From: Okeania sp. SIO2G5
Lineage (GTDB): Bacteria; Cyanobacteriota; Cyanobacteriia; Cyanobacteriales; Microcoleaceae
Assembly: GCF_010672305.1 (NCBI RefSeq)
Contig: NZ_JAAHGX010000014.1
Span: forward strand, 90,698 to 118,764
Length of the DNA: 28,067 bases
Direction of reading: 5' to 3'
Numbering within the stretch: position 1 is the first letter of the stretch; each line of letters opens with the position of its first letter. Below, in pieces: positions 6,901 through 27,313 of the stretch. A program made the translations under genes and the position numbers. The notes below the pieces were generated by a model. That model had not been told where the DNA came from and ran no database searches. It was given only the letters and a program-made list of their open reading frames with translations.

Positions 6901-9900
6901 GATCGCTCCATTAGTATTTCCTCCTTTCAACATAGAAGCAGCCATTTTTATTGCTTCAATTGCATAATGTTCCCTAGCTTTATCAGATAATTTTTCTGCC
7001 ATTTTTGTTGGTAAATAAGTTTGAGTAATTTCTATAGCTTTCCGAGCATTTTCTATATTACCGCCAGACTGCATTAAGCGGGAAGTTTCCGAGGAGGAAT
7101 GTAAACGGAAACAAGCCAAAATTTCCGGTTCAAACCAAATAGGATAAAAAGCAGTTATTCGCTTCCAAATTTCCCAATCAGCCGCCGAATCTGCCTGAGA
7201 ACAAAAACCTCCTAAATTTTCATAAACCTTACGTTTTACTACCATCCCCACAACTTGAATTCGTTGTTCAATAGTAATTTTTTCTAAGAAATTTTCTATA
7301 ATACCTGGAGTTTTTCTTTCCAACACAGACAAATACTTTTTCTGGTCATATTCATCTATATAATAGTGGCGACAAAATGCTGCTCCTACTGTTGTATTTT
7401 GTTCAATTCCACGACGTAATTTTTCATAAAAACCAGGCAAGACAAAATCATCATCATGGAGTAGATGAATCCAATATCCTTTTGCTCTTTGTAGACAAAT
7501 ATTAAAAATCGGAGCTTGACCAATATCTTGTGGAAAATGTCGATAAAAATTAACTCTTTCTCCCCCTACCTTTCGGACAATTGCTTCTATTTCAGCTTGA
7601 ATTTTATGGTCTGGACAATCATTTACGACTTCTATCTGCATTTCTTCTAGGGCAGGAGCTTGTTGCAATACACTTTTGAGAGTTTGCTCTAAATATTTCG
7701 CCTTTTTATAAGTAGGAATCATCACAGACCAAAACGGTCGATGGTTATTATCTGACAATGGATTAATTTCTGGATATTCAATACCCATTTGATTATTTTT
7801 GAGAGTAGCTATTTGAGGAAATTTTTCTATACCTACTTCTAGTTGTTGTTCTCGTCTTACCGTTGCCCAAATCCAAGGTTTAGCAGATTTTAAAGAAACT
7901 AAATTAAACCCCGCTGCCATTAATAAATCTTTTAATTTTTCTTCAGTATAAGCATTGCCAGAAAAATAATATTGTTGATCTTTTGCCCCTTCCTCATCAA
8001 AATTTCCTAAACTTTCAGCGCTGTGGTCATGTACTTTAATTCTCAAATATCCTCCCGGTTTCAAAACCCGAAATATTTCTCGGAAATAACTTTTGACAAT
8101 AGAAATAGAACGGATGTGCTGAAAAACTATCGTCGAAAAAACAAAGTCGTAATTTTCATCAGCTAACTGTTGCAAATCATCGCCATTATTAATATATAGC
8201 TCTCCATTTTGTTTCCCATCAGCTAAATATTGTCGGGCAAACTGAATCATATTTTCCGAAATATCTACACCATCTACCCGTGCAAATTTTTCTCGCAAAT
8301 ACTTAATAAGACGACCAACACCACAACCGATTTCTAATACTTTCCACTCTGGTTTAACAGGGATACCTTCCAGAATTTGTGGCACCCAAATTTCCATTAA
8401 CTCTTTCCTAACTTGCTTTTTTTGTCCTGGAGAAAGCGTCTCCATTCCACTGTAAGCTAAGACTCGCTCAAAAATAGCTTCATCTAAAGAATTAACATTC
8501 CTAAAATAGCGTTGTATTTCTAACTGCCCGTGATTTATTTGAAATTGAATTTTGCCTAAATTTTTCCTATCTTCCATACCAGATAATTCCTTTGATTTAA
8601 GCTGTATCTCTGACTCTCCATGATTTATTGGAGATGAAATTTCTCCTGACTTTTTCCTATCTTCCACACTAGAAAATTCCTTTGATTTAACCTGCATCTC
8701 TAAATCTCTATGATTTATTGGAAATGGAATTTCTCCTGACTTTTTCCTATCTTCCATAGCAGATAATCTCTCTACTTTAATCCGATTAAAAGTCTGGATA
8801 AATACATCAGTCATAATCTTAGCCATTCGAGACCAAGAAAACTTTTGAGCTTGTGCTAAACCAGCAGTTATTAATTGTTGCCGAACTTCTGATTTTTGCA
8901 CTTCACCCAAAGCATTTACCAATCCATTAACATCATTATCATTAATATATAAAGCTGCTCTTCCTGCCACTTCTGGAATTGAAGCATTTTTACAAGTAAT
9001 AACTGGACAACCACAAGCCATTGCTTCTAAAATAGGCAGTCCAAAACCTTCATATTTTGATGGATAAACTAAAGCCATCGCTCCAGAGTAAGCCGATTTT
9101 AATTCTTGGTCACTCAGTTGTAATAAATGAATTTTACTATCTGAAATATATTTGCTTAATTCTGGCTCTACTTTTCTATTTCCCCCTATACAAACAATCT
9201 CAAATTCTGCGGATTTTTTGAATTTAGCAAAAGCTTGAAAGAATAACATAGTATTTTTATAACCTAGCCAACCTATTCTCTCACCCACTATCAGAAAGTA
9301 TGGGCGATGAATGTTATATTTCAACTGAAAATTAGTAACTTCTTGAGGGGTCGCTCTAGAAAATTTAGGTTCAATTCCGCAGGGAGCTACTCTGATAGAA
9401 TTTGCGGATATTTGAGGAAAATATTTTACTAAATCACGAGCTGTATTTTCTGAAATTGAAATATAAGAAATTGCCTGTTTAATACTACGATGTTTTTCTT
9501 GCCATGAAGGGTTATCAAGATTTTTAGCTAAAACTTCTGGAATCATATCATAAGCCATAAATATAGATGGCGTTAAGATAGGTGTTGTGTAATAAGTAGA
9601 AATGAAAATATCAGCATTTTCTTCATCACATATTTGCTGCAAAATTTGACGGTCTGCATCTATTCTGCCGTAATTATATCCAGGGATAACACGATATTTT
9701 ATGCCGGGAATTTTTGGTGCAGTTTTTGCTCTGTCAAGCACTAAAATATTTTTAGCAAAACTATCTTTTGACCATACTTCCAACAAAGACTTCCAGACAC
9801 GGGCAATACCTGTATTATTTATTTGGAAAAATACACCATCAATAAGAACCTTGAAATCTAATAGCTGCCAATTTTTCGATTTTCTTTCGGCAATATTTTC

Positions 9901-11583
9901 AGAGTCTAACTCAGTTAACTGCTGCTGATTTTTTAGTTTCTTTTCTGTCACTTTTTCATAGTCTACCTCAGTTAAAGATTCTTTCCTTTTCTCAGGTTTA
10001 TATCTACCTATCCTAAATATGCTGTGAAACTCGGAATTTGATAAACTTTTCTCTGTTAATAAGTGCAGAGATTCTCCATCCGAACATAAATTAAGTTTAA
10101 ACTTTTGAGCAATTACAGATAATGCTTTTTTGTTAAATATAGAAATGTGTTGACCTTCTTCCAGAGCATAATACCACCAATCATTAGGACGAGGATTATC
10201 AGGTGGCAATAGCTTTGTACTAAATAAAATATTTCTAGTTTGTTGCAGTATCTTCTCAATTTCTGCCAGAGGATTTATGAAATGTTCAAATACTTCAAAA
10301 GCTGTGACTATTTCATATTTTTGTTCCCTATTTATTTCTCCTTCCCATCCTTGAGAAAAAATATTTTGGCAATATTTATCATATCCATAAAAATCTAATC
10401 CTAAGTCACGCATCATCCGGACAAATAAACCATACCCACACCCATAATCTAGGAATTTATCATTGGCATTAAAGAAGTTGAGAATTAAATTTTCTGTAAT
10501 CAAAGAAAAATTTTGATTTCTAGAAACCAAACCCACATCACTACTAGCAATTGCCTCTGTATAAGCTTCCCCTAACCAGTAAGGATTTTCCGTTTGTACA
10601 AAACCACAATTAGAACATTGAAAATAGTCAACATTATATTTATTTAAAACCTTAGCATTATCAAATTTGTGAGATATTGAACCACAAACTTTGCAATGAA
10701 CATTTTGAATTTGTAAACCACCACTAAACATTGTTTTTTCTGTAAAATTGTCTGCTGGAATATTACGAATAATAGAGGGAGGATGAGTCAGAGGAAAAAT
10801 CATTTCCTCCACAGACATATTGGCAAACTTATTAATACTTGAAGTGTGAGTAGCACCTTGACCAAAACCAATATTAGAAACTAAATTAACCTTGGGTAAA
10901 ATAGTTAAACCATGATAATTCCAACAGGCAAATGTCCAAGCATAAGCCCAAGAATTAAACCCTTGATAATTCTTCTGAAAAATCTCCGACCAATATTGAA
11001 CTGCCCTACTATTTTGTAGAATATTTTCTAACCACTTACTACCTCTAAGCTTCGACCATAATTGCATTTGATTATCATAATTTTTCCATGCTCTTCGCCA
11101 AGTTGCCCAACCCCAACAATGGGGATAGCGAGAGAAATAATAACTAGACTCTATTGGATTATTACCAAACTGAAAATTATCTCCAGATATAGCCATAATC
11201 CTCTCATCATTTCGATATCTTTCTAATAACTCTTCACAAAACCTAAAAAAAGTTAAATGAGGTACACAGTCATCCTCCAAAATAATTGCTGATTCTACCA
11301 AACTAAAAACCCAATTTAATCCATTATAAATACGCTCTCTACAACCTAAATTCTTCTCAGAATAATTAGTCAAAACTTCACAATTCCAATCAACCTGATC
11401 GATTATCTTTCTTGCTGCCATACACCTCTCAACTTCTCCATATCTATCGAGGCGAGGAGCATCAGCTATTACAAATAATTGAAGAGGCTTTACTTGACGA
11501 ATTGCCTCAAATACTTTTGCCGTTGTATCTGGTCGATTAAATATAATTATAACTACAGGAGTTGTTAATTGAAATTGAGTCAT
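3910..11583 (-). CDS. giant multidomain glycosyltransferase/methyltransferase (2557 aa): GT-A + Zn-ribbon SAM-MTase + GT4 + SAM-MTase + GT2 + GT41 (OGT-like) + repeated helical modules
   Basis: Single uninterrupted 7674-bp ORF; residue numbers are approximate. N-terminal GT-A-like domain with EDD motif (ILEDDCVP, res 1-300). CxxC...CxxC zinc ribbon, then MTase motif I LDYGCGYGLF (res 300-520). GT-B/GT4 domain with EX7E signature EGFGLPILEAMACGCPVI (res 570-960). 3 x 30-aa tandem repeat (res ~929-1018). Second MTase, motif I VLEIGCGVGRL (res ~1030-1230). GT2 domain with SVMIPTYKKAKYLEQTLKSVLQQ and HDDD (res ~1280-1530). C-terminal domain (res ~1790-2210) aligns by eye with GT41 catalytic-domain landmarks (RPKIRLGIL...FEIFLYA; VPNSILVLYPF; ADIYLDSFPYGGATSLVDPLMVGVPPVVVEG). 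Three paralogous ~125-aa modules at res ~1628-1760, ~2230-2350 and ~2420-2557. Confidence 0.9.
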   Translation of the reverse strand: MTQFQLTTPVVIIIFNRPDTTAKVFEAIRQVKPLQLFVIADAPRLDRYGEVERCMAARKIIDQVDWNCEVLTNYSEKNLGCRERIYNGLNWVFSLVESAIILEDDCVPHLTFFRFCEELLERYRNDERIMAISGDNFQFGNNPIESSYYFSRYPHCWGWATWRRAWKNYDNQMQLWSKLRGSKWLENILQNSRAVQYWSEIFQKNYQGFNSWAYAWTFACWNYHGLTILPKVNLVSNIGFGQGATHTSSINKFANMSVEEMIFPLTHPPSIIRNIPADNFTEKTMFSGGLQIQNVHCKVCGSISHKFDNAKVLNKYNVDYFQCSNCGFVQTENPYWLGEAYTEAIASSDVGLVSRNQNFSLITENLILNFFNANDKFLDYGCGYGLFVRMMRDLGLDFYGYDKYCQNIFSQGWEGEINREQKYEIVTAFEVFEHFINPLAEIEKILQQTRNILFSTKLLPPDNPRPNDWWYYALEEGQHISIFNKKALSVIAQKFKLNLCSDGESLHLLTEKSLSNSEFHSIFRIGRYKPEKRKESLTEVDYEKVTEKKLKNQQQLTELDSENIAERKSKNWQLLDFKVLIDGVFFQINNTGIARVWKSLLEVWSKDSFAKNILVLDRAKTAPKIPGIKYRVIPGYNYGRIDADRQILQQICDEENADIFISTYYTTPILTPSIFMAYDMIPEVLAKNLDNPSWQEKHRSIKQAISYISISENTARDLVKYFPQISANSIRVAPCGIEPKFSRATPQEVTNFQLKYNIHRPYFLIVGERIGWLGYKNTMLFFQAFAKFKKSAEFEIVCIGGNRKVEPELSKYISDSKIHLLQLSDQELKSAYSGAMALVYPSKYEGFGLPILEAMACGCPVITCKNASIPEVAGRAALYINDNDVNGLVNALGEVQKSEVRQQLITAGLAQAQKFSWSRMAKIMTDVFIQTFNRIKVERLSAMEDRKKSGEIPFPINHRDLEMQVKSKEFSSVEDRKKSGEISSPINHGESEIQLKSKELSGMEDRKNLGKIQFQINHGQLEIQRYFRNVNSLDEAIFERVLAYSGMETLSPGQKKQVRKELMEIWVPQILEGIPVKPEWKVLEIGCGVGRLIKYLREKFARVDGVDISENMIQFARQYLADGKQNGELYINNGDDLQQLADENYDFVFSTIVFQHIRSISIVKSYFREIFRVLKPGGYLRIKVHDHSAESLGNFDEEGAKDQQYYFSGNAYTEEKLKDLLMAAGFNLVSLKSAKPWIWATVRREQQLEVGIEKFPQIATLKNNQMGIEYPEINPLSDNNHRPFWSVMIPTYKKAKYLEQTLKSVLQQAPALEEMQIEVVNDCPDHKIQAEIEAIVRKVGGERVNFYRHFPQDIGQAPIFNICLQRAKGYWIHLLHDDDFVLPGFYEKLRRGIEQNTTVGAAFCRHYYIDEYDQKKYLSVLERKTPGIIENFLEKITIEQRIQVVGMVVKRKVYENLGGFCSQADSAADWEIWKRITAFYPIWFEPEILACFRLHSSSETSRLMQSGGNIENARKAIEITQTYLPTKMAEKLSDKAREHYAIEAIKMAASMLKGGNTNGAIAQIREGLKCSQSPSVVNLLISVLVSGETDLIKTPNQSVNSPKPQSIEQQKVVPTVKTNLLPSLTEINQNIQLYQQNQLDESALVRLQEIRKQIAECWLNIQTSEELKNVYLGAFGQAHKALLASGIKDETLTEIEQRFVDKIKANFAKGFNQPLAIQYLLAGMLYQRADRLGIKYEKAPIPSWFATDYLKFMFASPQLFQEIGETDNYHNFLVGWLNYVHNNISTNPDSELWQVIAWFFVENANWIPLYFTTTPNLKNLYIKRAEIIEFALKNRGLELDYKMNDRPFNRPKIRLGILKDHYSPQTETYSLLPVFEHLDRSKFEIFLYAIKSNGHPLEKYCQSHADKFLQLPEELKSQAQIIRNDNLDILFIGSNITATIKNSTLLAIHKLARIQITSINSPTTTGMHSIDYYISGKITAPTETTQEHYTEKLANLEDSGLCFRYAIAEPPSGVKPIRSSWGATDQTTIFISGANFYKIIPEMRETWAKILAKVPNSILVLYPFNPNWTNSYRFAPFIKQMRSVLKRHGIDSKRLVVIKALPSQADIKECLKLADIYLDSFPYGGATSLVDPLMVGVPPVVVEGNALRFRQASALLREIKMDDLIADGEESYINLVVKLATNPQLRQQKRQEILEKIEQNPSFLDSLSYSTQIGKLFQELFQEWQNIHAPKTIESTDKNSLTSEFINRLIGCVNLYEIDPTDQSLIEELRQLRKQIADFWLAVAPKELENTYQGKIRQAYQALLKSGIQNEPQTEDEQKFLKELAETSMGLTNPKAINTFLGAMLYFPPSKMLVRDAKNRLPQWLIDDYKQIFESREVAQKLEKAFKSKSPHLPENSPVTTAEVRPEKNVVLTANQTDNLDIPQQKFINQLLGSVNLYYIDPSDESVVQELRQIRKQMADFWINLEPQKLETFYLGEMGKGYQALLNSKIQNESLIESEQEFLRQLAAQLAKGIEAPKTINYLLAAMLYCRSEQLRIEDITKLPHWLLEDYQKFAGN
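4955..6215 (-). other. GT41 (O-GlcNAc-transferase / SPINDLY-like) catalytic-type domain within the giant ORF
   Basis: Motifs RPKIRLGILKDHYSPQTETYSLLPVFEHLDRSKFEIFLYA, ETWAKILAKVPNSILVLYPF and ADIYLDSFPYGGATSLVDPLMVGVPPVVVEGNALRFRQASALL correspond to the conserved OGT C-terminal blocks. Confidence 0.7.
8531..8800 (-). repeat. in-frame 90-bp x3 tandem repeat inside the giant ORF (30-aa units MEDRKKSGEI-FPINH--LE-Q-KSKE-S)
   Basis: tgatttattgga-atg-aatttctcctgactttttcctatcttcca recurs with an exact 90-bp period (unit starts 8531, 8621, 8711). The period is a multiple of 3 and preserves the frame. Confidence 0.85.
8704..9874 (-). other. GT4 (GT-B fold, group 1 glycosyltransferase) domain within the giant ORF
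   Basis: EX7E-type motif SKYEGFGLPILEAMACGCPVI and the upstream Rossmann-like half VLIDGVFFQINNTGIARV. Confidence 0.75.
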
Positions 11584-11696: not shown

Positions 11697-11812
11697 AGTC
11701 ATTTCAGTTATCAGTTATCAGTACCTCTGTAATAAAGAGGCTTTAAATACGAAATTATCTTTTTTTTTCCTTAAAAGAGGAGGCTTTAGACCAAGATTTT
11801 TCGGTAATAAAG
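11697..11812 (+). repeat. tcagttatcagttat-family + ccttaaaagaggaggctttagaccaagatttttcgg module, 5' flank of the giant gene
   Basis: Same two modules, in the same order and orientation, as at 3421..3500 and 3794..3835 on the 3' flank. Confidence 0.6.
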
Positions 11813-12204
11813 TTGATAGCTGATATCTCACTACTGAATCCTGAGAAACTTTTAATTATGGAAAATATTTCCATTATTTTTTCTCCTTTCAAAGTAATCA
11901 AAACTGATAGCTGACTGCTGAGTGCTAAATGCTTATAAGCTAATAAAGCTGATAGCTGATACCTGAGTGCTGAATGCTTATAAACTTTTAATTATGGAAA
12001 ATATTTCCATTATTTTCCCCTCCTTTCAAAGTAATAAAAACTGATAGCTGAATGCTGAGTGCTAAATGCTTATCAGGTAAGAAAGCTGATAGCTGATACC
12101 TGAGTACTGAATGCTGAGAAACTTTTAATTCTGGGAAATATCTCAATTACTTTTTCCTCCTCTAAAGGTAATAAAGCTGAATCCTCACCGCTGAATGCTT
12201 AACC
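11813..12204. repeat. intergenic tandem repeat, about 136-bp unit x 2.9
   Basis: Units at 11813..11947, 11948..12084, 12085..12204. Each carries two gctgatagctga-N-ctgagtgct-aatgcttat half-sites and a near-palindrome atggaaaatatttccat. Confidence 0.85.
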
Positions 12205-12325: not shown

Positions 12326-12856
12326 TTATCCATTATCCATTAATGACGTCGCTTTATATAAAATATCTTGATGAGACCGTTCCAGTAAAGTCTCATTGAT
12401 AGAATTAGATAATACTGCAACAGGTTCATATAATGGTCTTAAAAAAGAGTCAATTGCTTTTCTATCTCCATAACGTACTTCTATCAACATAAACTTTGGT
12501 TGGTATTTATCAAAATCAATACCTTGCAACACATCTAATTCAAAACCTTCAACATCCAACGAAAACAAATCTATATTTTCAACTCCATACTTATCAAGAA
12601 TTGCAGTTAGTGTCCTTACTCGTACATTAATTTCATAACTATGATTAATATTTTGAACTTGACAACCCGCTTTTAAATGAACCTTTTTTTCCTCCTCTGA
12701 CTTCATAGCTCCATCAACAAAAGACATAAGATTACAATAGTACATTTTTATATAATCCTGACCATAATTAAAAGGAACCAAAGCATAATTTTCAACCGCT
12801 GACTTAGACCGATTAATTCTACATTTTTCTGCTAACTCTGGTATTGCCTCTATCAA
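12326..12856 (-). CDS. FkbM-family SAM methyltransferase, C-terminal portion; reading frame continues upstream to an in-frame TGA at 12890..12892
   Basis: Motif IDLFSLDVEGFELDVLQG is the FkbM (Methyltransf_21) signature. The frame is open from 12889 and continuous with the upstream ORF across a single TGA (FIEAGANDGISQSNT*YFEKYKNWQGILIEAIPELAEK). Confidence 0.7.
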   Translation of the reverse strand: MIEAIPELAEKCRINRSKSAVENYALVPFNYGQDYIKMYYCNLMSFVDGAMKSEEEKKVHLKAGCQVQNINHSYEINVRVRTLTAILDKYGVENIDLFSLDVEGFELDVLQGIDFDKYQPKFMLIEVRYGDRKAIDSFLRPLYEPVAVLSNSINETLLERSHQDILYKATSLMDNG

Positions 12857-12889: not shown

Positions 12890-14038
12890 TCAAGTATTAC
12901 TTTGACTTATCCCATCATTCGCCCCAGCTTCAATAAAAAATCCATTTTCCCAAGTTAAGTAAGAAGCAAGTTTAAGATCGAGCTGATTCAAAGCATAAGA
13001 TTTTCTCATTAAATCAGGTTTTATTTCTAATGCCTTTTGCTGATAAATATTAGCCTCAAATAATCTACCCTGTTTCTGTAAAATATTACCAATACTCCAA
13101 TATATACCTGCCGACTTTGGTTCAAGTGCAATAACTTTTTGATAGTAAGCGTTCGCCTGTTCTAGCTGACCTTTTTGGGAATAAATTTTGCCTAGTTTTG
13201 CATAAACTATTGCCAAGTTTGGTTGTGATTTTATTGCTTTGTTATAAGAACGAATAGACTTTTCAATTTGACCTTTAGAATAATAAAAATCCCCTAATCC
13301 CTGATAAGCTTCAGCAGCATAAGGTTGATTTTTAATAGCTTCGTAATAAGCCAAAATCTGATTATCTTGACTGTCTAGATTTTTATTTTTTCTTTTAGCT
13401 CTTGCTTCACCTTGACCCAAAGAAATACCCAAGCAAGACTGCTTTTGACTAGGTAATTTTAAATCCGATAAAAAATCATCACTTTGAAAAAAAATAGAAG
13501 TACAGCTTTTATATCTTTGACTAGGAACTAAACCATAAAAATCAATACGTTTAAATCCTTGATGATGAAGCAAAATTACTCCCCTATCATTTTCCTCTCT
13601 ATCCGAATTATCAAATACTATCCAGCCATTTTTAGATAATTTTTCACCACATATTTCAGCACATTTAACTCGCTCAATTCCATCAATAATAATCACATCA
13701 AAATCACCATTATCATAATTCTGAATTTCCTCAACATATCTTTGCCTATCTTCCCTCAAAACTAGCTTCACATTTTGAGGAATATAAGTTGAAACATTGA
13801 CAAAATAATCAGGATTATGTTCTACAGAAACCACCTGCTTAACTCGGTCAGCGTACCAAAAAGTTGACTGTCCGCTCCCATATTCAAATACTCGAAAATC
13901 GCTCTTTAACTTATCCTCAATAAATTCAATAGCAGGATAAGAATACCAAGGAAGAGGATGATAATTATAATCTATAGATTTTCCTTCTTTTAATGAATTG
14001 AGCCATCCTGAAGTTTCTAGATAGTTCAAATTAGTCAT
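12890..14038 (-). CDS. TylF/CmcI-like class I methyltransferase domain + TPR repeats + start of the FkbM methyltransferase domain (382 aa ORF ending at in-frame TGA)
   Basis: N-terminal FEYGSGQSTFWYA...DVIIIDGIERV...NGWIVFDNSD resembles the macrocin-O-MTase/CmcI-type fold. Central TPR-like repeats (AEAYQGLGDFYYSKGQIEKSIRSYNKAIKSQP; AIVYAKLGKIYSQKGQLEQANAYYQKVIALEP). Ends FFIEAGANDGISQSNT, which is the FkbM N-terminal GAN-G motif. Confidence 0.7.
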   Translation of the reverse strand: MTNLNYLETSGWLNSLKEGKSIDYNYHPLPWYSYPAIEFIEDKLKSDFRVFEYGSGQSTFWYADRVKQVVSVEHNPDYFVNVSTYIPQNVKLVLREDRQRYVEEIQNYDNGDFDVIIIDGIERVKCAEICGEKLSKNGWIVFDNSDREENDRGVILLHHQGFKRIDFYGLVPSQRYKSCTSIFFQSDDFLSDLKLPSQKQSCLGISLGQGEARAKRKNKNLDSQDNQILAYYEAIKNQPYAAEAYQGLGDFYYSKGQIEKSIRSYNKAIKSQPNLAIVYAKLGKIYSQKGQLEQANAYYQKVIALEPKSAGIYWSIGNILQKQGRLFEANIYQQKALEIKPDLMRKSYALNQLDLKLASYLTWENGFFIEAGANDGISQSNT

Positions 14039-14710: not shown

Positions 14711-14858
14711 GAACAACATTATCAAAATAATTGGGTCGCGCAACCCCACCTTTTAAGGCGAAATATTCTTGAAACCTTGCTCAAATCCCCTACTTCCCCT
14801 CCACCGGAGGGGGAGGGGCGAGGGGTGGGTTAACTTCTGACTTCTGACTTCTGACTTC
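14711..14858 (-). mobile_element. MITE-like element family A, second copy (inverse orientation)
   Basis: Its reverse complement reads gaagtcagaagtcagaagtcagaagttaacccacccctcgcccctccccctcc-ggtggaggggaagtagggga...cgccttaaaaggtggggtt...attattttgataa, co-linear with 2935..3085. Confidence 0.6.
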
Positions 14859-14975
14859 AAATCCCCGTTACAAAAATAACTTCTGACTTCTAACTTTTGA
14901 GTTTTGACTTCAAATCCCCGTTACAAAAATAACTTCTAACTTTTGACTTTTGAGTTTTGACTTTTGACTTTAATC
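14834..14975. repeat. heptamer-based tandem repeats (CTTCTGA/TTTTGAC) with an embedded ~52-bp duplicated unit caaatccccgttacaaaaataacttct
   Basis: Direct reading. The 52-bp unit is at 14858..14885 and again at 14910..14937. Confidence 0.75.
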
Positions 14976-18430: not shown

Positions 18431-18612
18431 ATTGGGACTTAAACAAAATAGAGCCAGAAAATAGGCTTAAATATAGACGGGCAAAGGCTTTTACGTCAAA
18501 AAGGTATAAATCCTGAATTACCAAAGGTTCTAGCCATTTTTAGGGAATCGACGTAATTCCCTTGTCTAGAGTGGCTTTGACGCATTTTTTCGACCAGAAA
18601 ATGTTTAAGTAC
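18430..18612 (-). mobile_element. MITE-like element family C (ggtcaaaaaatg...gggaattacgtcaatg...ggaaccctt...atacctttttgac family), reverse orientation, inserted between modules B and C of the second repeat copy
   Basis: Contains the reverse complements of the blocks at 23105..23295: cattttttcgaccagaaaatg, gggaatcgacgtaattccc, tttacgtcaaaaaggtataa. Confidence 0.55.
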
Positions 18613-18774
18613 CACTATGACGATTGAGTGGAAAATCACCAATTTTTTTTTCATTCTCGGAAGCTCCTCCAGAAAAAATCGCGACATCCCGTTAGCAGAG
18701 ATTATCCGTTAGGATAAACCCAACATTAGTAAGGTTTTGTTGGGTTGAACGGTAGTGAAACCCAACCTACTAAA

Positions 18775-18803
18775 CTCTGACTTTTGACTTTTGACTTGTC
18801 CTA
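18775..18803. repeat. heptanucleotide repeat (TTTGACT)x3
   Basis: Direct reading: ctgacttttgacttttgacttgtcc. It overlaps the TTG start proposed by the ORF track. Confidence 0.8.
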
Positions 18804-18804
18804 T

Positions 18805-19428
18805 ATGAGCAATCTTTCTTACAGTAAATTCACATTGGAAATAGCCAAGACAAATTTTGAATTAACCTTAGAAGAAAATCAAGATTTATTCGCCCAAATT
18901 AAACCAGTTAAACCTTCTGAAATTCTCACAACTATCTTACGAGAATATATTCCATTAGCAACAGCTATTAATACAGAAAAAGCTCGTTCTGAACTATTAA
19001 TTTCTCAAATTTTAGCTGATGTGAGACGGCAATTAAATTATCGAATTAGTCTTTTTTCAGGAACAGAATTTAACGTAGAAGCAGAATTAGGATTACAAGG
19101 ATATTGTGATTTTTTGCTCAGTTTTTCCTCCGAACAATATTTCATTACAGCTCCAGTGATTATCATTGTTGAAGCTAAAAATGAAAATATTATTCGTGGG
19201 TTAGGACAATGTGTTGCTAGTATGGTTGGAGCGCAATTATTTAATCAGCGAGCTGATAATCCAGTTAAGGTTATTTATGGCGCAGTTACAACTGGAACAA
19301 ATTGGAAGTTTTTAACACTTGAAGAAAAAATTGTGTGTATAGATGCAGTGGAATATTACGTCAAAGAAGTTGATAAAATTTTAGGAATTATTTTACAGCC
19401 ATTTCGAGAATATCGAGAAAATTCTTGA
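18805..19428 (+). CDS. hypothetical protein (207 aa from ATG 18805) with a PD-(D/E)xK-like / HsdR-N-like motif arrangement
   Basis: The intact ORF in the track starts at TTG 18784, but that codon lies inside a heptamer repeat, so ATG 18805 is more plausible. The spacing GYCDFLL ... IIIVEAKNE ... Q ... GAVTTGTNWKF resembles the D ... (D/E)xK ... Q ... NG..W.F layout of restriction-endonuclease-fold domains. No family recognised with certainty. Confidence 0.55.
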   Translation: MSNLSYSKFTLEIAKTNFELTLEENQDLFAQIKPVKPSEILTTILREYIPLATAINTEKARSELLISQILADVRRQLNYRISLFSGTEFNVEAELGLQGYCDFLLSFSSEQYFITAPVIIIVEAKNENIIRGLGQCVASMVGAQLFNQRADNPVKVIYGAVTTGTNWKFLTLEEKIVCIDAVEYYVKEVDKILGIILQPFREYRENS

Positions 19429-19598: not shown

Positions 19599-20138
19599 AT
19601 GAAAATTATACAAAGTCGCATAGCAAAGGTTTTACTTGCAAGTATTATCGCTCTCTTAACAATTTTTACATCTGTTGTGAATCCTCAAGGTATCTCTGGT
19701 GTTCTATTTGCTCAGAAACCCAATGGAGAATTGTCATACTATAGCTATAGTGGTTTGCCAGACCGTAATAACTTTAACAACAATGGTAATGAAAGGGTAA
19801 TATCTAGCGGTTGGAATATTTACAGCAAGATTTTTTCAGGAGGTTCTGGTGTTCTATTTGCTCAGAAATCCAATGGAGAATTGTCATACTATAGCTATAG
19901 TGGTTTGCCAGACCGTAATAACTTTAACAACAATGGTAATGAAAGGGTAATATCTAGCGGTTGGAATATTTACAGCAAGATTTTTTCAGGAGGTTCTGGT
20001 GTTCTATTTGCTCAGAAACCTAATGGAGAATTATCATACTATAACTATAGTGGCTCGCCAGACCTTAATAACTTCAACAACAATGGTAATGAAAGGGTAA
20101 TATCTAGCGGTTGGAATATTTACAGCAAGATTTTCTAA
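19599..20138 (+). CDS. secreted protein (179 aa) made of a signal peptide plus three 50-aa tandem repeats
   Basis: N-terminus MKIIQSRIAKVLLASIIALLTIFTSVVNPQG (positive N-region, hydrophobic core). It is followed by 3 x GVLFAQKPNGELSYYSYSGLPDRNNFNNNGNERVISSGWNIYSKIFSGGS. Coding repeats 1 and 2 differ by a single nucleotide. Confidence 0.75.
   Translation: MKIIQSRIAKVLLASIIALLTIFTSVVNPQGISGVLFAQKPNGELSYYSYSGLPDRNNFNNNGNERVISSGWNIYSKIFSGGSGVLFAQKSNGELSYYSYSGLPDRNNFNNNGNERVISSGWNIYSKIFSGGSGVLFAQKPNGELSYYNYSGSPDLNNFNNNGNERVISSGWNIYSKIF
19695..20138 (+). repeat. 150-bp x 3 near-identical coding tandem repeat
   Basis: Unit starts at 19695, 19845, 19995. Copies 1 and 2 differ at one position (cagaaaCccaatgg vs cagaaaTccaatgg); copy 3 has about 8 differences. 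Confidence 0.9.
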
Positions 20139-20351: not shown

Positions 20352-22172
20352 CTACTGAACTCTAAAATTATTAATTACCTCAATTTTCCTATTTCCTTTT
20401 TCCTCTTTCCTTTTTCCTTCTTCCTTCTTCCCTCTTCCTTCTTCCTTCCTCACACAATTAGCATCCAAAACCAATAAACTATCATTCTCAAAAACAGTAC
20501 AAGTAGATATAGTTGTTGCCAAAGCAGGAATATATCCCAACTGCAAAAAAGTAACCGCATCCTGTGCAGGTTCATATTGCATTAACCAACTATTATCCTC
20601 AATATATTCTGGCGTAAAACTACCACGATGTAACATCCAAAAATCAATTCCATACTTTTGAATAAAATTTTTCACATCTGCTAAATCTGAACTATATTGA
20701 GCAACAATTAAATCTATAGTTCGTTGCCGAAATTGACTGTAATAACCAACTTGATAAGGAATAGCATATTCCCTACCCAACAAAATAGAACGTTGAGCAA
20801 ATGTAGGTAATAAATTTGCCTCTTCCTCCAAAGAAGCAATCAAAATATCTTGAGGTTGTGCTTGAAAAAAGCTATATAAATCTGTAGCTCTACCCACTTT
20901 ATATTTCACCAGAGGAAAGCCTTTAACAAAAGCAGGATATAACACCAGAGATGCCATAATTAAACTCGTTAAAATTAAAGAAATAATACCCTGAAATTTA
21001 ACAGGATATTTTTGTCTATTTTCTGCCCAATTAAACAAAGCATCAATAATTAAAGTCAGAGCGATCGCCGTTGCCAAAGCAATAATTATCCGGAAACTTA
21101 ATCCTGTATATCTACTCGGAAGATGCAACCGAAAAAGTAAGGCATGAGCAATGAAAAACATTGCCAAAGATGACAGTAATAGATGTACTAATAACCAAAT
21201 TCTATTAGTAATACTTCTGATTAAAGGAAAAGCAGATTTAAAAGTCAATAAAAACGGCAATAATAATCCTGCACATTGAGTAGCTGGAGTAAATAAAGAC
21301 TTAGGAAACATTCCACTACGTTTGCCAGTTAACCAAAAATCTTTTGGATGAACGTGAAAAAAAGTACTCCTCCCATTTGGATAAAACTCTCTTAATTTCA
21401 TCGCTGCTTCTCGACTAATAGCAGGTCCGAATTCTGAAGAAGTTAAAGCGTAGGGTAATAAAACAAAAAATGCCGTGCTTAAACCAACTCCACAAAATAG
21501 AAAAGTCCGTTTTTCTGATGATAACTGAAACCTCCCATTTTTCCAGTAAATTAGTTGGAAAATTAGAATGCCAGAAGCGATAAATACATATTGAGGATAA
21601 AATAATCCGACCAGAGCAATCGCTATTCCCATTCTGACCAATGAACCTTGGAGTAAATAATATAAAAAAGCCAGAAAAAATGGATAAACAAATGCTCTAG
21701 GTGTAGCAGAAGCAACATCATCTTTCATCCAAATAGCTTGATTCATTACCAAAGCAGCAATAAATCCTGCCATTGGTACTGGTAATATCTCTAAACAGAT
21801 TTGAAAAATATAGTAAGTACAAATTAAACCCAAAATAAAAGGGATAATTTTGGCAAAGATAAACGGGTTAATTCCTATAATTGCTGCACTTTTATAAAGT
21901 AAAGTATATCCTGCTGGAGCTACTGACTGAAAATAATTAGCAATTAAATCATTGGGGAATAAATCTGGATAAAAAAAACGCTGCATCCAAAAAATATGTT
22001 GTCTAGCATCATCTTGAATACTCAGACTACTAGCAAAAGCTTTTTTAAGTGTCATAAAAGCATAAATTGTAGCAAAAGTCATGCTAAGGCTAAACCAAAA
22101 TATCACCCCTTTACAAGATTTTTCATCTACGATAGGGGTAGTTAAAAATTTATGTATATTTGTCATTAACAT
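20352..22172 (-). CDS. polytopic integral membrane protein (606 aa), putative GT-C-fold glycosyltransferase, with low-complexity Lys/Glu/Gly C-terminal tail
   Basis: About 12 predicted hydrophobic helices in the first ~430 residues. Acidic DD motif (SIQDDARQH) in the first extracytoplasmic loop, as in GT-C enzymes (ArnT/PMT/OST-like). Soluble C-terminal domain. The last ~30 residues (RKEEGRGKKEEGKRKEEKGNRK) are encoded by the heptamer array at 20385..20452. Confidence 0.55.
   Translation of the reverse strand: MLMTNIHKFLTTPIVDEKSCKGVIFWFSLSMTFATIYAFMTLKKAFASSLSIQDDARQHIFWMQRFFYPDLFPNDLIANYFQSVAPAGYTLLYKSAAIIGINPFIFAKIIPFILGLICTYYIFQICLEILPVPMAGFIAALVMNQAIWMKDDVASATPRAFVYPFFLAFLYYLLQGSLVRMGIAIALVGLFYPQYVFIASGILIFQLIYWKNGRFQLSSEKRTFLFCGVGLSTAFFVLLPYALTSSEFGPAISREAAMKLREFYPNGRSTFFHVHPKDFWLTGKRSGMFPKSLFTPATQCAGLLLPFLLTFKSAFPLIRSITNRIWLLVHLLLSSLAMFFIAHALLFRLHLPSRYTGLSFRIIIALATAIALTLIIDALFNWAENRQKYPVKFQGIISLILTSLIMASLVLYPAFVKGFPLVKYKVGRATDLYSFFQAQPQDILIASLEEEANLLPTFAQRSILLGREYAIPYQVGYYSQFRQRTIDLIVAQYSSDLADVKNFIQKYGIDFWMLHRGSFTPEYIEDNSWLMQYEPAQDAVTFLQLGYIPALATTISTCTVFENDSLLVLDANCVRKEEGRGKKEEGKRKEEKGNRKIEVINNFRVQ
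20385..20452. repeat. heptanucleotide repeat (TTCCTTT/TTCCTTC)n lying inside the 3' end of the 20352..22172 ORF
   Basis: Direct reading: cctatttcctttttcctctttcctttttccttcttccttcttccctcttccttcttccttcc. Confidence 0.85.
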
Positions 22173-22332
22173 ATAATCAAGAATTGATTGAATAGGCAGA
22201 TTTTAACAGATATTTAAAATAATTTTTTATACTATTGGGACTTAAACATTTTATGATCAAAAAATGGCTGATAGTCAGTCTAGATAAGGGAATTACGTCA
22301 ATGCCATAAAAATTCCTAGAACCCTTGTTCAT

Positions 22333-22590
22333 TAATGGATAATTGATAATTACCTTTGGTTAAAACCGAGAGGATTGAATATCAGGAAATATTATTTTTT
22401 CTCTTGTTCGATTGGATATGGCGAGGAGACCCGTTCTTGCAGACTCGCTCCGCTGTTAGCGTTTGCGGTAGCATTCCGGAATGGAAAGCTTTGCGGTAGC
22501 AAACGCCATCCCACCCTACGGGAAGCTCCGCTAACGACCACTTTTTTTTCCTTTAAAATGGGAAGCTTTAAACCAGAATTATTTAATTAT
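22333..22590 (+). mobile_element. nested composite MITE-like insert (cattaatggataattgataatta...ggttaaaaccg module + ttggatatggcgagg...cccaccctacgggaagctccg module with an internal palindrome)
   Basis: Matches 14115..14215 and 3508..3565. Contains the hairpin-forming gcgtttgcggtagc-attccggaat-ggaaagcttt-gcggtagcaaacgc (attccggaat is a perfect palindrome). Ends with cctttaaaatgggaagctttaaacc. Confidence 0.55.
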
Positions 22591-22630
22591 TAATAATTAA
22601 TAATTAATTATTAATTATTAATTATTCGGT
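22591..22630. repeat. simple AT repeat (TTAATAA/TTAATTA)n
   Basis: Direct reading: ttaataattaataattaattattaattattaattatt. Confidence 0.85.
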
Positions 22631-23104
22631 AATTAAGGATTTATACCTTTTTGACATCAAAGCCTCTTTCTGTATATGCTTGAGACTATTTTACAACTCG
22701 ATTTTGTATAATTACCACTATAAAAATTATCATACTGGTAAGTTACAGTATTCTGGTTTTCAGAGAACATTATCCCGGAAATATTAGCTGAAATAAAAAT
22801 ACAAAAACCATACTTTAAACAGGTTAAAATGCTATATTAATACCGCATCAATTGCTTTATAAAGCTTTAAAAAAAACAGGCTTATCTGATTTTAATTGGT
22901 AAATTATAATGGTTGAATAGATTCAAAAAAAATTGATGTATTGAAATATATTATAAATTTTATTATGATTAATTTAAGATTTTTAAAAGCAAAAAAACAG
23001 TATAATTTAAATTTAAAAATAGAACTAAAAATGCAATCAATTTATTTTTTTGCAGTTCTAAATATGTAATAATATTATTCGCTAAATTCCTTGAATTATT
23101 AGTG

Positions 23105-23295
23105 GTACTTACACATTTTCTGGTCAAAAAATGCCTATTTGCGTAGCATTCCGCAGGAAGAGTCTGTCTGCATAAGGAAATTACGTCAATGTCCTAAAAA
23201 TGCCTGGAACCCTTGGTAGTCAAAGAATTATACCTTTTTGACGTGAAGCTCTCTATCTGTATATATTTGAGACTATTTTATCACTCTACGAGCGT
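23105..23295 (+). mobile_element. MITE-like element family C, uninterrupted copy
   Basis: ggtcaaaaaatgcc...ggaaattacgtcaatgtcctaaaaatgcctggaacccttgg...atacctttttgacgtgaagctctctatctgtatatatttgagactatttta. Confidence 0.55.
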
Positions 23296-23530
23296 GTAAG
23301 TCCCATGACGAAGATATACAAGAAAAATAATTACTTGTTTAGCACTATCTAATTTGTTGATGACAAAAATCTAGTAAAAAATATGTTGATTATAACTAAC
23401 GATAACTCCATTAAGTTATATGTAATTTTCTACACCATACTGTATGGCCAACGCCAGGTCTATCATCAAAATTTATTGTGATATCATCAGACTCATAACA
23501 TTTACTTAATAAGCAACTTTAAGACCTTTA

Positions 23531-23923
23531 ATGGAACCACCAATTGAAAGAATACGACTTTCTCAAACAGCTAAAGATCAGTTAACTAAGCTGAAACGTA
23601 ATACCAAAATAGACCAATGGAATATTCTTTGTCGTTGGGCATTTTGTTGCTCTTTAGCAGAATCAAGCATTCCCTCTCTAGTACCAACCCCTGCTGATAG
23701 TAATTTAGAATTAACATGGAGAATTTTCGGTGGAGAATTTTCTGACATCTTTTTATTAGCTCTAAAGCAACGTTGTTATAATGATCAAATAGGCATAGAA
23801 AGAGAAACTTTGGCCACTCAGTTTCGCCTACACTTGCATCGAGGTATTGGATATTTAGCTGGTAACCCAAATATCAAAAGGATAGAAGACTTAATTGCAA
23901 CTGTGATTCCTTCTCTCGACTAA
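23531..23923 (+). CDS. dndE: DndE-like protein (DNA phosphorothioation system component family), 130 aa, stand-alone
   Basis: Intact ORF. The pattern RIRLSQTAKDQLTKLKRNTKIDQWNILCRWAFCCSL ... TWRIFGGEFSDIF ... LATQFRLHLHRGIGYLAG matches my recollection of the DndE family consensus (RLS..AK.QL..LKR.TGI..WN.LCRWA.C.SL ... FGGE ... FRLHLHRGI.YLAG). No dndB/C/D homologues are present in the window. Confidence 0.5.
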   Translation: MEPPIERIRLSQTAKDQLTKLKRNTKIDQWNILCRWAFCCSLAESSIPSLVPTPADSNLELTWRIFGGEFSDIFLLALKQRCYNDQIGIERETLATQFRLHLHRGIGYLAGNPNIKRIEDLIATVIPSLD

Positions 23924-24154: not shown

Positions 24155-24583
24155 ATGATTCATGCTAACTCTAAAAAGAAATATCTAAATGTCATGGAAG
24201 ATATGGTAGCACAGGAAGTAAATCGCCAAATTACCTTATTACCTCAAAAGTTAGCGAAATATATTAAGCGAGTTGATGTAGAAACTTATGCGCTGAATCG
24301 TCTCCCACCCTTATATGCTTCTAGTCAGGAAGGCTGGAAGTTTCAAACAAAAAAAGCACAAGAAGATTATAGAAAGGAGATTGTGGTAGTAGTACGTCAT
24401 GCTTTTGCAGCAGTACAAAGAGACTTGTTGAAAAGCTCAACTCCTCTATTTACAGAGGAAACCAAAAAAGTATCCTCCTTAGTAACAAAAGCAGGAGGAT
24501 CTACGGCAGAAAATAAAGAAAGCAGTAAAAATTATAATTGGAATCATAGTCAGTACTATAACTTAGGGAGTTCTAGAAAATAA
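24155..24583 (+). CDS. comFB: ComFB-family protein (late competence development protein ComFB domain; in cyanobacteria a cyclic-dinucleotide receptor family)
   Basis: The ORF is open from 24098, but the RBS-supported start is 24155 (142 aa). Block YLNVMEDMVAQEVNRQITLLPQKLAKYIKRVDVETYALNRLPPLYASSQEGWKFQ matches the ComFB domain core (LN.LPPLY). Confidence 0.6.
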   Translation: MIHANSKKKYLNVMEDMVAQEVNRQITLLPQKLAKYIKRVDVETYALNRLPPLYASSQEGWKFQTKKAQEDYRKEIVVVVRHAFAAVQRDLLKSSTPLFTEETKKVSSLVTKAGGSTAENKESSKNYNWNHSQYYNLGSSRK

Positions 24584-24939: not shown

Positions 24940-25752
24940 CTATAATAAAGGGAAAAAATGTCCTACTGGCCCTTGACCAAGACCAATTTCTAAAGCATAC
25001 TCCAAAGCATTTGTGACATAATCCTTCGCCAATTTAACTGCAGAAAATAAATCTTTCCCTTGAGCTAAATTAGCAGCTATAGCTGCCGAGAGAGTACAAC
25101 CAGTGCCATGAGTATTATTAGTCTCCACCGTAGCAGTCCTTAAAATTTCAAACTGCGCTCCATCAAACCAAACATCTACTCCTAGTAACTCATTCTTCAT
25201 GGCTCCCCCCTTGACTAAAACTGTTTTTGCTCCTAGCCTGTGAATTTCCTGAGCAGCCATCTGCATATCATCTAGGTTATTAATCTCTAAACCCGTAAAA
25301 ATCTCTGCCTCATAAATGTTAGGAGTAACAATAGTCGCCTTAGGCAGCAAAACATTCTGTAGAGCTTCCACAGCCAAATCATCAATCAACTGAACACCTG
25401 CACGGGAGACCATCACTGGGTCTATTACTAATTTATTTAAATTTAAAGCTTCTATCTCTTCAGCTACGGCCAAGATAATTTCCTGACTCAATAACATTCC
25501 GGTCTTAGTTGCTTGTACGCCTATATCCGTAAAAACAACTTGAATTTGTGCTTTTACCGCTTCTGGGGACAAAGCGTCAACCCTATTTACTCCCAAAGTA
25601 TTTTGAGCAGTAATACAAGTCAAAGCACTCGTACCATGAACACAATGAAAAGCAAAAGTACGCAGGTCTGCCTGAATACCCGCTCCACCACCACTATCAG
25701 ATCCAGCAATAGTCAAAGCAACAGGAATACTTGATACCTTTAAATTATTCAT
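24940..25752 (-). CDS. thiD: hydroxymethylpyrimidine/phosphomethylpyrimidine kinase ThiD (270 aa)
   Basis: N-terminal LTIAGSDSGGGAGIQADLRTF signature. Downstream DPVMV and GTGCTLS motifs of the ribokinase-like HMPP kinase family. Confidence 0.9.
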   Translation of the reverse strand: MNNLKVSSIPVALTIAGSDSGGGAGIQADLRTFAFHCVHGTSALTCITAQNTLGVNRVDALSPEAVKAQIQVVFTDIGVQATKTGMLLSQEIILAVAEEIEALNLNKLVIDPVMVSRAGVQLIDDLAVEALQNVLLPKATIVTPNIYEAEIFTGLEINNLDDMQMAAQEIHRLGAKTVLVKGGAMKNELLGVDVWFDGAQFEILRTATVETNNTHGTGCTLSAAIAANLAQGKDLFSAVKLAKDYVTNALEYALEIGLGQGPVGHFFPLL

Positions 25753-26041
25753 AATATCAAATTTAGTAGTCAGTAGTCAATAGTCTGTAGTTATTTTTAA
25801 ATAAATAGAACTTATGCACAAATACTGCATAACATTTATAAACTATAGTTAAACCTATAGTGCCACACTATATAAACCTGTTAACCACTAAAGAATGCCT
25901 AAATTTACCTCTAACTAAACTACTATTAACTTAATCAACTTCTTTAAATTGCACTGCCGTGCAAGGCCAACAAATTTGATATAACAATTAATAGAATTGA
26001 CCTGGATGTCAATATCAAGAAAATTCCCTTGCTTTAACCAT

Positions 26042-27313
26042 CTATCTATTAGTAGGTGGAGTCCGTCGCCTTTGCAGAAAATCAGGAATATCCAATCCTG
26101 GTAATTTTTTCTGCTTCTCTGTGCTTTGAGTTGGAGTTGGAGTTGGAGTTGGTATCGACCTTCTTGGCTGTGATATTTCCTGGGTAGGATTCATTTGTGC
26201 TTCTCCACTAAAACCAGTTGCTATGACAGTAATTTTGATTTCTCCCTGCAATTTCTCATCAATTACAGCCCCAAAAATAATATTGGCATTAGGATCGACA
26301 ACTTCATAGATAGTCTCAGCAGCAGTATTAACTTCATGTAACGTTAAATCAGTTCCGCCAGTAATATTAAATACCACCCCTCTAGCTCCTTCCACAGAAG
26401 ATTCCAGTAAAGGAGAAGAAATGGCCATATTTGCTGCTTCTCTTGCCCTAGACTTCCCAGACCCCATACCAATTCCCATCAAGGCTGAACCTGCATCTGC
26501 CATCACTGCTCGTACATCGGCAAAGTCAACATTCACCAACCCAGGCACAGTAATAATATCTGAAATTCCTTGTATACCTTGACGTAATATATCATCTGCA
26601 ATTCTAAAAGCTTCCTGTACGGGAGTTTGTTCATTAATTACAGATAGCAAACGATTATTGGGAATTACGATTAAAGTATCAACTCTACTTTGTAAAGCAG
26701 CAACTCCTTCATCAGCTTGAGTAATTCGACGTCTTCCCTCGAAAGTGAAGGGACGCGTCACAATACCCACTGTCAGAGATCCTGCTTCTTTAGCAATTTC
26801 AGCTATAACGGGTGCTGCACCAGTACCAGTACCACCTCCCATTCCAGCAGTAATAAATACTAAATCGGGGTGGTCTAAAGCATTAGCTATTTCATCCCTA
26901 GATTCTTCAGCCGCTTTTTGGCCAATAGCCGGATTACCCCCTGCCCCCAAACCTCTTGTGAGTTTTTGTCCAAGTTGTAAGCGTTTAGGAGCATTGGACA
27001 GGGTTAGAGCTTGGGCATCTGTATTAACTGTCCAGAATTCTATACCAGAAACCTCACTAGCAATCATTCGGTTAACAGCATTGCCGCCACCCCCTCCAAC
27101 ACCTATTACTTTAATTTTTGCTGTATTACTTGGCACAATATCATCACTCCTAGATTCTTTCTTTGGGGTGGCTTTGGGGTCATAATTTTGTTCTCCATAA
27201 AGTCCCGAGCTATTGCGAAAGGGATTAGAGAGATTTTTTGGTAATGGAAAATTTCCTTGTCCTTGGGATTGGGGACTTTCACTGTTGACCCCTTGTTGAT
27301 TATTCACTATCAT
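26042..27313 (-). CDS. ftsZ: cell division GTPase FtsZ (423 aa) with cyanobacterial-type N-terminal extension and Pro/Thr/Gln-rich C-terminal linker
   Basis: Tubulin signature GGGTGTG ([20 protein letters not shown]) and [15 protein letters not shown] nucleotide-binding start. About 60-aa N-terminal extension, as in cyanobacterial FtsZ. C-terminal DIPDFL-type conserved peptide. Confidence 0.95.

Follow-up and report, generated by a model that had tools for sequence, protein, structure and literature searches.

The gene at nt 23531..23923 of a 28,067-nt stretch of the Okeania sp. SIO2G5 genome (contig NZ_JAAHGX010000014.1, positions 90,698 to 118,764; the whole stretch is called the window here) encodes DndE, a subunit of the Dnd machinery for phosphorothioate modification of DNA. 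DndE is normally encoded by the last gene of a dndBCDE operon. In the window, dndE stands alone. The comparisons reported here point to a functional dndE whose product acts in trans with a distant dndB/dndC/dndD cluster of the same genome, a reading to which we assign a probability of about 0.8. It is carried by the identity of the protein, the local solitude of its gene, the presence of the partner genes at a distance, the ancestral linkage of all four genes, and the purifying selection acting on them.

nt 23531..23923, plus strand: dndE, candidate DNA-binding tandem ribbon-helix-helix subunit of the Dnd machinery (PF08870, TIGR03184, PDB matches, and the ratio of nonsynonymous to synonymous substitutions, dN/dS)

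Identity of the protein

The open reading frame (ORF) encodes 130 residues and starts at the ATG common to all orthologs. The first-pass annotation, made from the sequence alone, had called it DndE-like and proposed a search against the Pfam DndE family. That search is significant: PF08870 gives a full-length match above the curated cutoff (E 1e-42, 145.4 bits against a cutoff of 25, profile positions 1-110 of 111). The NCBIfam DndE equivalog, TIGR03184, matches with 134.8 bits (cutoff 71.85), and the assignment is thereby borne out. Three PADLOC DndE models match more weakly, with 58, 36, and 28 bits. When the PDB was searched with the protein or with a profile of 37 homologs, the sole sequence matches were the solved DndE structures 7x4e, 5wtu, and 4lrv; 7x4e aligns over residues 4-122 (E 3e-4), and the other two are weaker. 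No sequence-level match of the window DndE to the TraY, Arc, or MetJ families was found. Judged by these matches, the ORF product is a genuine DndE of a phosphorothioate (sulfur) modification system. The protein itself is ordinary, and public annotation already labels it DndE.

Okeania sp. SIO2G4 and related unclassified Okeania encode an identical DndE. Of 2309 DndE homologs, the best 120 are all cyanobacterial, with 76-92% identity, and include proteins of Okeania, Trichodesmium, Coleofasciculus, Chroococcidiopsis, Fischerella, Nostoc, and Allocoleopsis. Such high conservation misfits a decaying island gene, and the genomic context was therefore surveyed.

Location of the partner genes

With cyanobacterial DndB, DndC, DndD, and the dnd-associated methyltransferase as queries, tblastn gives zero matches across the 28-kb window, even at E ≤ 1; the earlier statement that no dnd-like ORF lies within 5 kb thus holds for the whole window. 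In a scan of species-representative genomes, 80 dndE loci with 10-kb flanks were annotated by tblastn with probe proteins. About 45 of the 80 contain a full dnd cluster (Nostocales, Chroococcidiopsis, Coleofasciculaceae, Floridaenema, Hormoscilla, and Prochloron), laid out as a divergent dndB, then dndC, dndD, and dndE, mostly followed by the gene of a ~485-residue TIGR04096 protein. Nineteen of the 80, from Okeania, Dapis, Trichodesmium, and close relatives, match the window, dndE being solitary between a membrane-protein gene and ComFB-thiD-ftsZ; in these 19 split loci tblastn finds no dndB, dndC, dndD, or methyltransferase gene within 10 kb of dndE. The flanking genes in the window are as follows.

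nt 20352..22172, minus strand: 606-residue multi-pass membrane protein (ORF; no Pfam family match)
nt 24155..24583, plus strand: ComFB-family gene (PF10719, 73.5 bits; gene call from the near-identical contig L001)
nt 24940..27313, minus strand: thiD (24940..25752) and ftsZ (26042..27313) (Pfam Phos_pyr_kin, 307 bits; synteny)

The partner genes reside elsewhere in the genomes of this clade. The DndD of locus L022, from the closest relative in which dndD is still linked, was used as a query. Orthologs with 82-85% identity were found in Okeania (SIO2F4, KiyG1, SIO3I5, SIO1I7, and SIO3B5), Dapis (M126, M172, and M229), and many Trichodesmium, including the complete genome of Trichodesmium erythraeum IMS101; cluster membership adds DndD in Okeania sp. 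SIO2G4, O. hirsuta, SIO2C9, and SIO2B3. In IMS101, dndB, dndC, and dndD are located at 2.98-3.00 Mb and dndE at 5.78 Mb of the same chromosome, and no dndE follows dndD; in split genomes the genes after dndD are now those of a TPP enzyme and a 172-residue protein. The IMS101 DndC, of the PP-loop/PAPS-reductase type of sulfurtransferase, reaches 684.7 bits on TIGR03183 (cutoff 290.4), and the DndD, a coiled-coil ABC ATPase, 679.1 bits on TIGR03185 (cutoff 245.85). The SIO1I7, KiyG1, and MO_207-type loci contain dndC as well; in the Okeania strains SIO1I7 and KiyG1 one large contig carries dndB, dndC, and dndD and another carries dndE. Assembly GCA_010692585.1 carries dndE on contig 652 (L001), which is 99.85% identical to the window over 3.3 kb, and dndD on contig 250 (L094). 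The term orphan, as the first-pass annotation used it, is correct for the window but not for the genome: DndD co-occurs with DndE on another contig of GCA_010692585.1 and in IMS101, SIO1I7, KiyG1, and others, and dndBCD is found elsewhere in the relatives.

A published table lists one dndB, one dndC, two dndD, one dndE, and no dndFGH for IMS101 (PMC8569181 source data; the column order was taken from the neighbouring sheet). Ten DndA/IscS-like genes are counted in IMS101 in the same source (PMC8569181 source data).

Nuclease genes were seen inside relocated dndBCD loci. In KiyG1 an HNH_2 nuclease gene lies between dndB and dndC. It is preceded by the gene of a 161-residue protein with a precomputed ScoMcrA-type sulfur-binding-domain annotation, for which our own Pfam scan gave no match; the two genes are at L090:3786-4633. 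In SIO1I7 an RRXRR-HNH gene lies between dndC and dndD (L089:8537-9853). These genes are weakly consistent with a live system.

Origin of the split

Two sister Microcoleaceae loci of the MO_207.B10 type (L091 and L092) encode dndB, dndC, dndD, dndE, ComFB, ThiD, FtsZ, and FtsQ in a single run, and in L022 dndD is still upstream of dndE, in the frame dndD-dndE-ComFB-ThiD-FtsZ. Since L091 and L092 keep the run from dndB to ftsQ unbroken, it was dndE that stayed and dndBCD that moved. The order dndE-ComFB-ThiD-FtsZ-FtsQ is the same in the unsplit L091 and in all split loci, and the thiD/ftsZ anchors mark dndE as the gene of the old cluster that kept its position. On the other side of dndE, the 606-residue membrane-protein gene borders the spacer where the unsplit relatives have dndD. 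It is kept upstream of dndE in the 19 split-clade loci and is missing from L091, L092, and L022.

A neighbour-joining tree of FtsZ and ThiD, covering 17 split and 3 unsplit genomes, unites the three unsplit genomes as one clan in 100% of 200 bootstraps. Since they form one clan, one event on the branch leading to the 17 split genomes suffices. Gene order and tree together argue for one cut of the operon, which separated dndE from dndD before Okeania, Dapis, and Trichodesmium diverged. At E ≤ 1, tblastn finds no relic of DndB, DndC, DndD, or the methyltransferase in any split-locus spacer, and no dndE beside a relocated dndD.

By coordinate, the IMS101 genes run dndD (minus), dndC (minus), dndB (plus), and then dndE (plus) 2.79 Mb further on. 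One inversion that ended in the spacer between dndD and dndE would give just this orientation, and an inversion of about 2.8 Mb may have been the mechanism. The dndD-dndE spacer is 0.9-1.3 kb in the unsplit relatives, compared with about 70 bp in Chroococcidiopsis. Because the spacer was already long in those relatives, a promoter specific to dndE probably predates the break.

Selection on the split genes

The dN/dS ratios were computed pairwise by the Nei-Gojobori method for 20 split-clade genomes. The dndE gene is intact in all 20, with conserved length and start codon, and has a dN/dS of about 0.13 (mean dS 0.53), compared with 0.10 for FtsZ, 0.18 for ThiD, 0.19 for the membrane protein, and 0.27 for ComFB. 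The ratios for the relocated partners in the split genomes are 0.04-0.13 (DndB), 0.13-0.26 (DndC), and 0.08-0.16 (DndD). The unlinked dndE is under purifying selection, and so are dndB, dndC, and dndD.

These values bear on the suggestion of the first-pass annotation that the gene is the decaying remnant of a lost Dnd island. The solitude of dndE amid repeat-rich non-coding DNA would suit such a remnant. However, dndE is as constrained as ftsZ and thiD, its start codon and length are conserved, and dndBCD has been relocated, not lost; we therefore reject the remnant, which is barely credible. Relaxed selection, truncation, frameshifts, and flanking dnd relics would mark a pseudogene or a piece of an island; the gene is intact, and no relics were detected at E ≤ 1.

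A further proposal of the same annotation was that the protein serves another role. In that case the unlinked DndE would have been recruited as a stand-alone ribbon-helix-helix protein that binds DNA or regulates, perhaps acting on ComFB, with dndBCD independent or irrelevant. The gene has a long upstream spacer of its own with a candidate promoter, ComFB starts 231 bp after it in the same orientation, no terminator being predicted in the gap, and ribbon-helix-helix proteins are commonly transcription factors (PMC10853773). On the other hand, the ComFB adjacency is ancestral, being present in the unsplit cluster, and Trichodesmium lost ComFB yet kept dndE. Every checked named clade genome with dndE also had dndD. 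DndE and DndD evolve at an equal rate, the protein divergence between IMS101 and Okeania being dN 0.085 for DndE and 0.078 for DndD. The protein is 77-84% identical to the DndEs of complete clusters, and 37 cyanobacterial DndEs, from split and unsplit genomes, share the same residue at 60 of its 130 positions; as far as the alignments go, the pattern of constraint shows nothing of the shift that a new function would be expected to bring. Recruitment is thus unlikely, and it is unsupported because the genomes with the unlinked dndE have also kept dndB, dndC, and dndD in conserved form.

The spacer upstream of dndE

The first-pass annotation described about 930 bp of repeat-laden non-coding DNA upstream of dndE. 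The repeats are real, but the spacer, which extends from the membrane-protein gene to dndE, is 1358 bp long. It marks the junction, on the dndE side, left by the rearrangement that took dndBCD away. Its features are listed here.

nt 22173..23530, no strand assigned: non-coding spacer of 1358 bp between the membrane-protein gene and dndE (no credible ORF, Pfam, or Rfam match)
nt 23097..23286, plus strand: intact copy of a ~190-nt dispersed repeat unit (repeat families D1-D3, blastn, promoter scan)
nt 22230..22699, plus strand: second copy of the ~190-nt repeat, in two parts, 22230-22343 and 22628-22699 (repeat search, blastn)
nt 18458..18617, minus strand: third copy of the ~190-nt repeat, outside the spacer and more diverged, 70% identity (blastn)
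nt 23479..23487, plus strand: candidate extended -10 element of dndE, TG at 23479-23480 and TATCAT at 23482-23487 (upstream alignments)

The spacer is repeat-laden and hypervariable across species; its proximal ~240 nt are conserved, in the closest Okeania only. By blastn it has no homology to the dndD-dndE spacers of the unsplit relatives, and the breakpoint can be placed no closer than upstream of about -55. The second repeat copy is broken by a 284-nt insertion (22344-22627), which belongs to a small-repeat family dispersed in Okeania and Dapis, with up to 17 matches per 20-kb relative locus. The insertion terminates in an AATTATT microsatellite/palindrome, with a 7-nt tandem array at 22577-22626. 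Repeat-rich intergenic DNA spans the whole window and is not specific to dndE. Intergenic tandem arrays are also seen at 11803..12175 (137-nt unit, 2.7 copies) and 14831..14963 (53-nt unit, 2.5 copies). An Rfam scan of the whole window returned no family.

The GC content is 34.9% for the window, 36.6% for dndE, 35.8% for other coding DNA, and 33.2% for non-coding DNA, which makes up 36% of the window. The region had been described as an AT-rich island; since its composition equals the genome background, that description is withdrawn.

The gene would be transcribed from a promoter of its own. The candidate -10 element lies 44 nt before the ATG. The extended -10-like block TGATATAAT (in the window TGATATCAT, 23479-23487) is conserved in all Okeania upstream alignments, and the unsplit relatives have A/T-rich -10-like hexamers at the equivalent position upstream of dndE. 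Sequence upstream of the block is hypervariable across the aligned loci. The intact repeat copy also carries a promoter-like pair, TTGACG-18-TATATT, at 23238-23267. A terminator scan of the dndE region found none.

Neighbouring genes

The ComFB gene that the first-pass annotation placed downstream of dndE is confirmed by the PF10719 match; it starts 231 bp past dndE. ComFB follows dndE in L091, L092, and L022 as well, that is, in split and unsplit genomes alike, and is a synteny anchor outside the Dnd system. A functional link between DndE and ComFB was considered and rejected, because the adjacency is older than the split and Trichodesmium lost ComFB. The Trichodesmium dndE loci (L020, L021, and L023) are without ComFB, with no relic at E ≤ 1, and keep dndE; in IMS101 dndE and thiD are about 2.8 kb apart, with non-coding DNA between them.

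Beyond the membrane-protein gene, on the side away from dndE, are a 214-residue PD-(D/E)xK protein (18784..19428, plus strand) and a tachylectin-like secreted protein (19599..20138, plus strand). The former matches the PADLOC 'cas-associated PD_DExK' model with 165 bits and no Pfam or NCBIfam family; its gene is syntenic in several Okeania and Dapis loci and missing from others. Three 150-nt repeats with 96% identity make up the latter and point to a very recent internal duplication.

These neighbours raise the possibility that DndE belongs to an uncharacterised system together with ComFB, the PD-(D/E)xK protein, or the 606-residue membrane protein. The PADLOC model matched by the PD-(D/E)xK protein is defence-associated, the membrane-protein gene is conserved beside dndE throughout the split clade, and Dnd modification modules are often found near other nucleases (PMC10853773). 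The neighbours, however, met dndE only via the rearrangement and are absent from the unsplit L091, L092, and L022. Many split loci lack the PD-(D/E)xK gene, which lies about 4 kb from dndE with two unrelated genes between, and ComFB is dispensable at the Trichodesmium locus. Because the neighbours joined dndE only by rearrangement and are variably present, a system built from them is very unlikely. The first-pass annotation had envisaged an uncharacterised DndE-containing system with parts outside the window; partners do lie outside the window, but they are the ordinary dndBCD set at a distant locus.

At the far side of the window, a single ORF of 2557 residues (3910..11583, minus strand) fuses GT1, GT2, and GT41-type glycosyltransferase domains with at least two S-adenosylmethionine (SAM)-methyltransferase domains. 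It holds an internal 90-nt tandem repeat of 2.8 copies at 8513-8767. Its neighbours encode an FkbM-type methyltransferase (12326..12856, minus strand) and a TPR/methyltransferase protein (12890..14038, minus strand).

A model for DndE acting in trans

The reading that we prefer, a functional DndE supplied from its own locus, can be set out as a sequence of steps. The ancestral cluster, with dndB divergent from dndC, dndD, and dndE, was directly upstream of ComFB-thiD-ftsZ-ftsQ. A single rearrangement with its breakpoint in the already long dndD-dndE spacer would have carried off dndBCD and left dndE behind. The split layout was then passed on to Okeania, Dapis, and Trichodesmium, and purifying selection has kept each of the four genes. 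In the present genomes dndE would be transcribed alone, from its own promoter, and DndE would meet DndD by diffusion, not by co-translation, to join the DndC and DndD made from the distant locus. By homology, DndE would dock on the ABC-type ATPase DndD and position the sulfurtransferase DndC on the DNA target. An IscS/NifS-type desulfurase would feed DndC, and sulfur would replace a non-bridging phosphate oxygen.

DndE is described as a monomeric DNA binder of tandem ribbon-helix-helix architecture, with a C-terminal helix that pairs to the DndD ABC ATPase, and it was proposed to recognise the target sequence (PMC10853773). DndC is the sulfurtransferase, and IscS can replace DndA (PMC10853773, PMC8569181). 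The split-clade DndE would presumably assemble with DndCD, and phosphorothioation would presumably take place.

Several points weigh against this reading. In a survey of over 4000 taxa, DndD and DndE were always linked and were termed an 'obligate pair' (PMC10853773), so that an unlinked DndE working in trans would be unprecedented in that survey; the same paper blames fragmentary assemblies for exceptions to the linkage. Here there is no DndD in the 28-kb window, nor within 10 kb of dndE in 19 related genomes. Linkage is a property of gene order and not of the protein, and the protein therefore stays in the DndE family. The literature search returned no phosphorothioate report for Trichodesmium or Okeania, and so we infer the activity of the system. 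In GCA_010692585.1 dndD is the partner seen; dndB and dndC are seen in IMS101, SIO1I7, KiyG1, and an unsplit relative. The inversion relies on the orientation in one complete genome. The promoter scan gave 15 promoter-like matches versus 11.9 in shuffles, and because this is no enrichment the dndE promoter is kept as a candidate. Finally, the AlphaFold2 model, built from a low-diversity alignment of 37 sequences, has a mean predicted local distance difference test score of 51.7 and no strands, and is uninformative on structure; the low score arises because the available homologs are all at least 75% identical. Indirect support for the ribbon-helix-helix fold comes from the end-to-end alignment with 7x4e.

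Significance of the gene order

The novelty is in the gene order and not in the protein. The arrangement differs from every described one that we found, a modest but real exception. An ecologically important clade of marine cyanobacteria (Trichodesmium, Okeania, and Dapis) retains the pair in unlinked form, megabases apart in one complete genome. Since the pair is unlinked and under purifying selection across the clade, operon linkage is not needed to retain DndD and DndE. The clade thus offers a natural test case for the supply of DndE in trans and for its separate regulation. The unlinking of dndE may be tolerated and perhaps even exploited, either for independent control of the amount or place of phosphorothioation or by DndE moonlighting as a sequence-specific ribbon-helix-helix regulator; we hold this idea to be speculative, with a rather small chance of being right. 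Defence-system callers based on gene neighbourhood will report an incomplete Dnd system or an orphan DndE in these genomes.

Comparison with known Dnd systems

The canonical dndBCDE or dptBCDE operons of Streptomyces lividans, Salmonella enterica Cerro 87, and E. coli B7A contain the same four families, DndB/DGQHR, DndC (TIGR03183), DndD (TIGR03185), and DndE (TIGR03184), with dndB likewise divergent from dndC-dndD. Unlike in these operons, the split-clade dndE is not at the operon end but at a separate locus, 2.8 Mb off in IMS101. The window DndE is also only weakly similar to the solved enterobacterial DndE (4lrv, E 0.05-0.8), and no dndFGH is tabulated for IMS101 (PMC8569181 source data).

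The dnd cluster of Nostocales, Chroococcidiopsis, and Coleofasciculaceae is closer, its DndE being 74-84% identical to the window DndE. Between the split clade and Chroococcidiopsis, DndC is 68-74%, DndD about 58%, and DndB about 61% identical, and by these identities the split-clade genes and the cyanobacterial cluster are clearly the same, vertically related system. In the cyanobacterial clusters dndE comes tens of bases after dndD and is followed by the methyltransferase gene, whereas the window dndE is unlinked. That gene, of the TIGR04096 family 'phosphorothioation-associated putative methyltransferase' (721 bits; L004:10417-11865), directly follows dndE in about 50 loci; it is absent near both the dndE and the dndBCD loci of the split clade.

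A 2021 study reported 'various configurations' and incomplete clusters among cyanobacterial dnd genes (PMC8569181). Four loci, that of Allocoleopsis franciscana PCC 7113 (L002; CP003630) and L041, L068, and L085, have dndE with TIGR04096 and no dndB, dndC, or dndD within 10 kb. The published table lists one dndC and two dndD for PCC 7113, and its dndE may for this reason represent a second independent unlinking; the two genes were not located among the 120 closest relatives of a Coleofasciculaceae DndD, nor on plasmids. Similar unlinking may thus have arisen independently in other lineages, with PCC 7113 as a candidate.

The closest counterpart is the unbroken cluster of the sister Microcoleaceae (L091/L092 and L022), whose DndE is 84% identical to the window DndE. 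It shares the downstream order dndE-ComFB-ThiD-FtsZ-FtsQ and the long upstream spacer. It differs in having dndD directly upstream (in L091 also dndC and dndB), where the window has the unrelated membrane-protein gene.

Outside the Dnd family, TraY shares the tandem ribbon-helix-helix architecture with DndE, which binds DNA as a monomer (PMC10853773). For an unlinked Dnd component there is the precedent of the trans-encoded IscS that replaces DndA (PMC8569181, PMC10853773). The two cases are not equivalent: the desulfurase has housekeeping equivalents, whereas no such substitute exists for DndE, whose linkage to DndD is described as obligate (PMC10853773).

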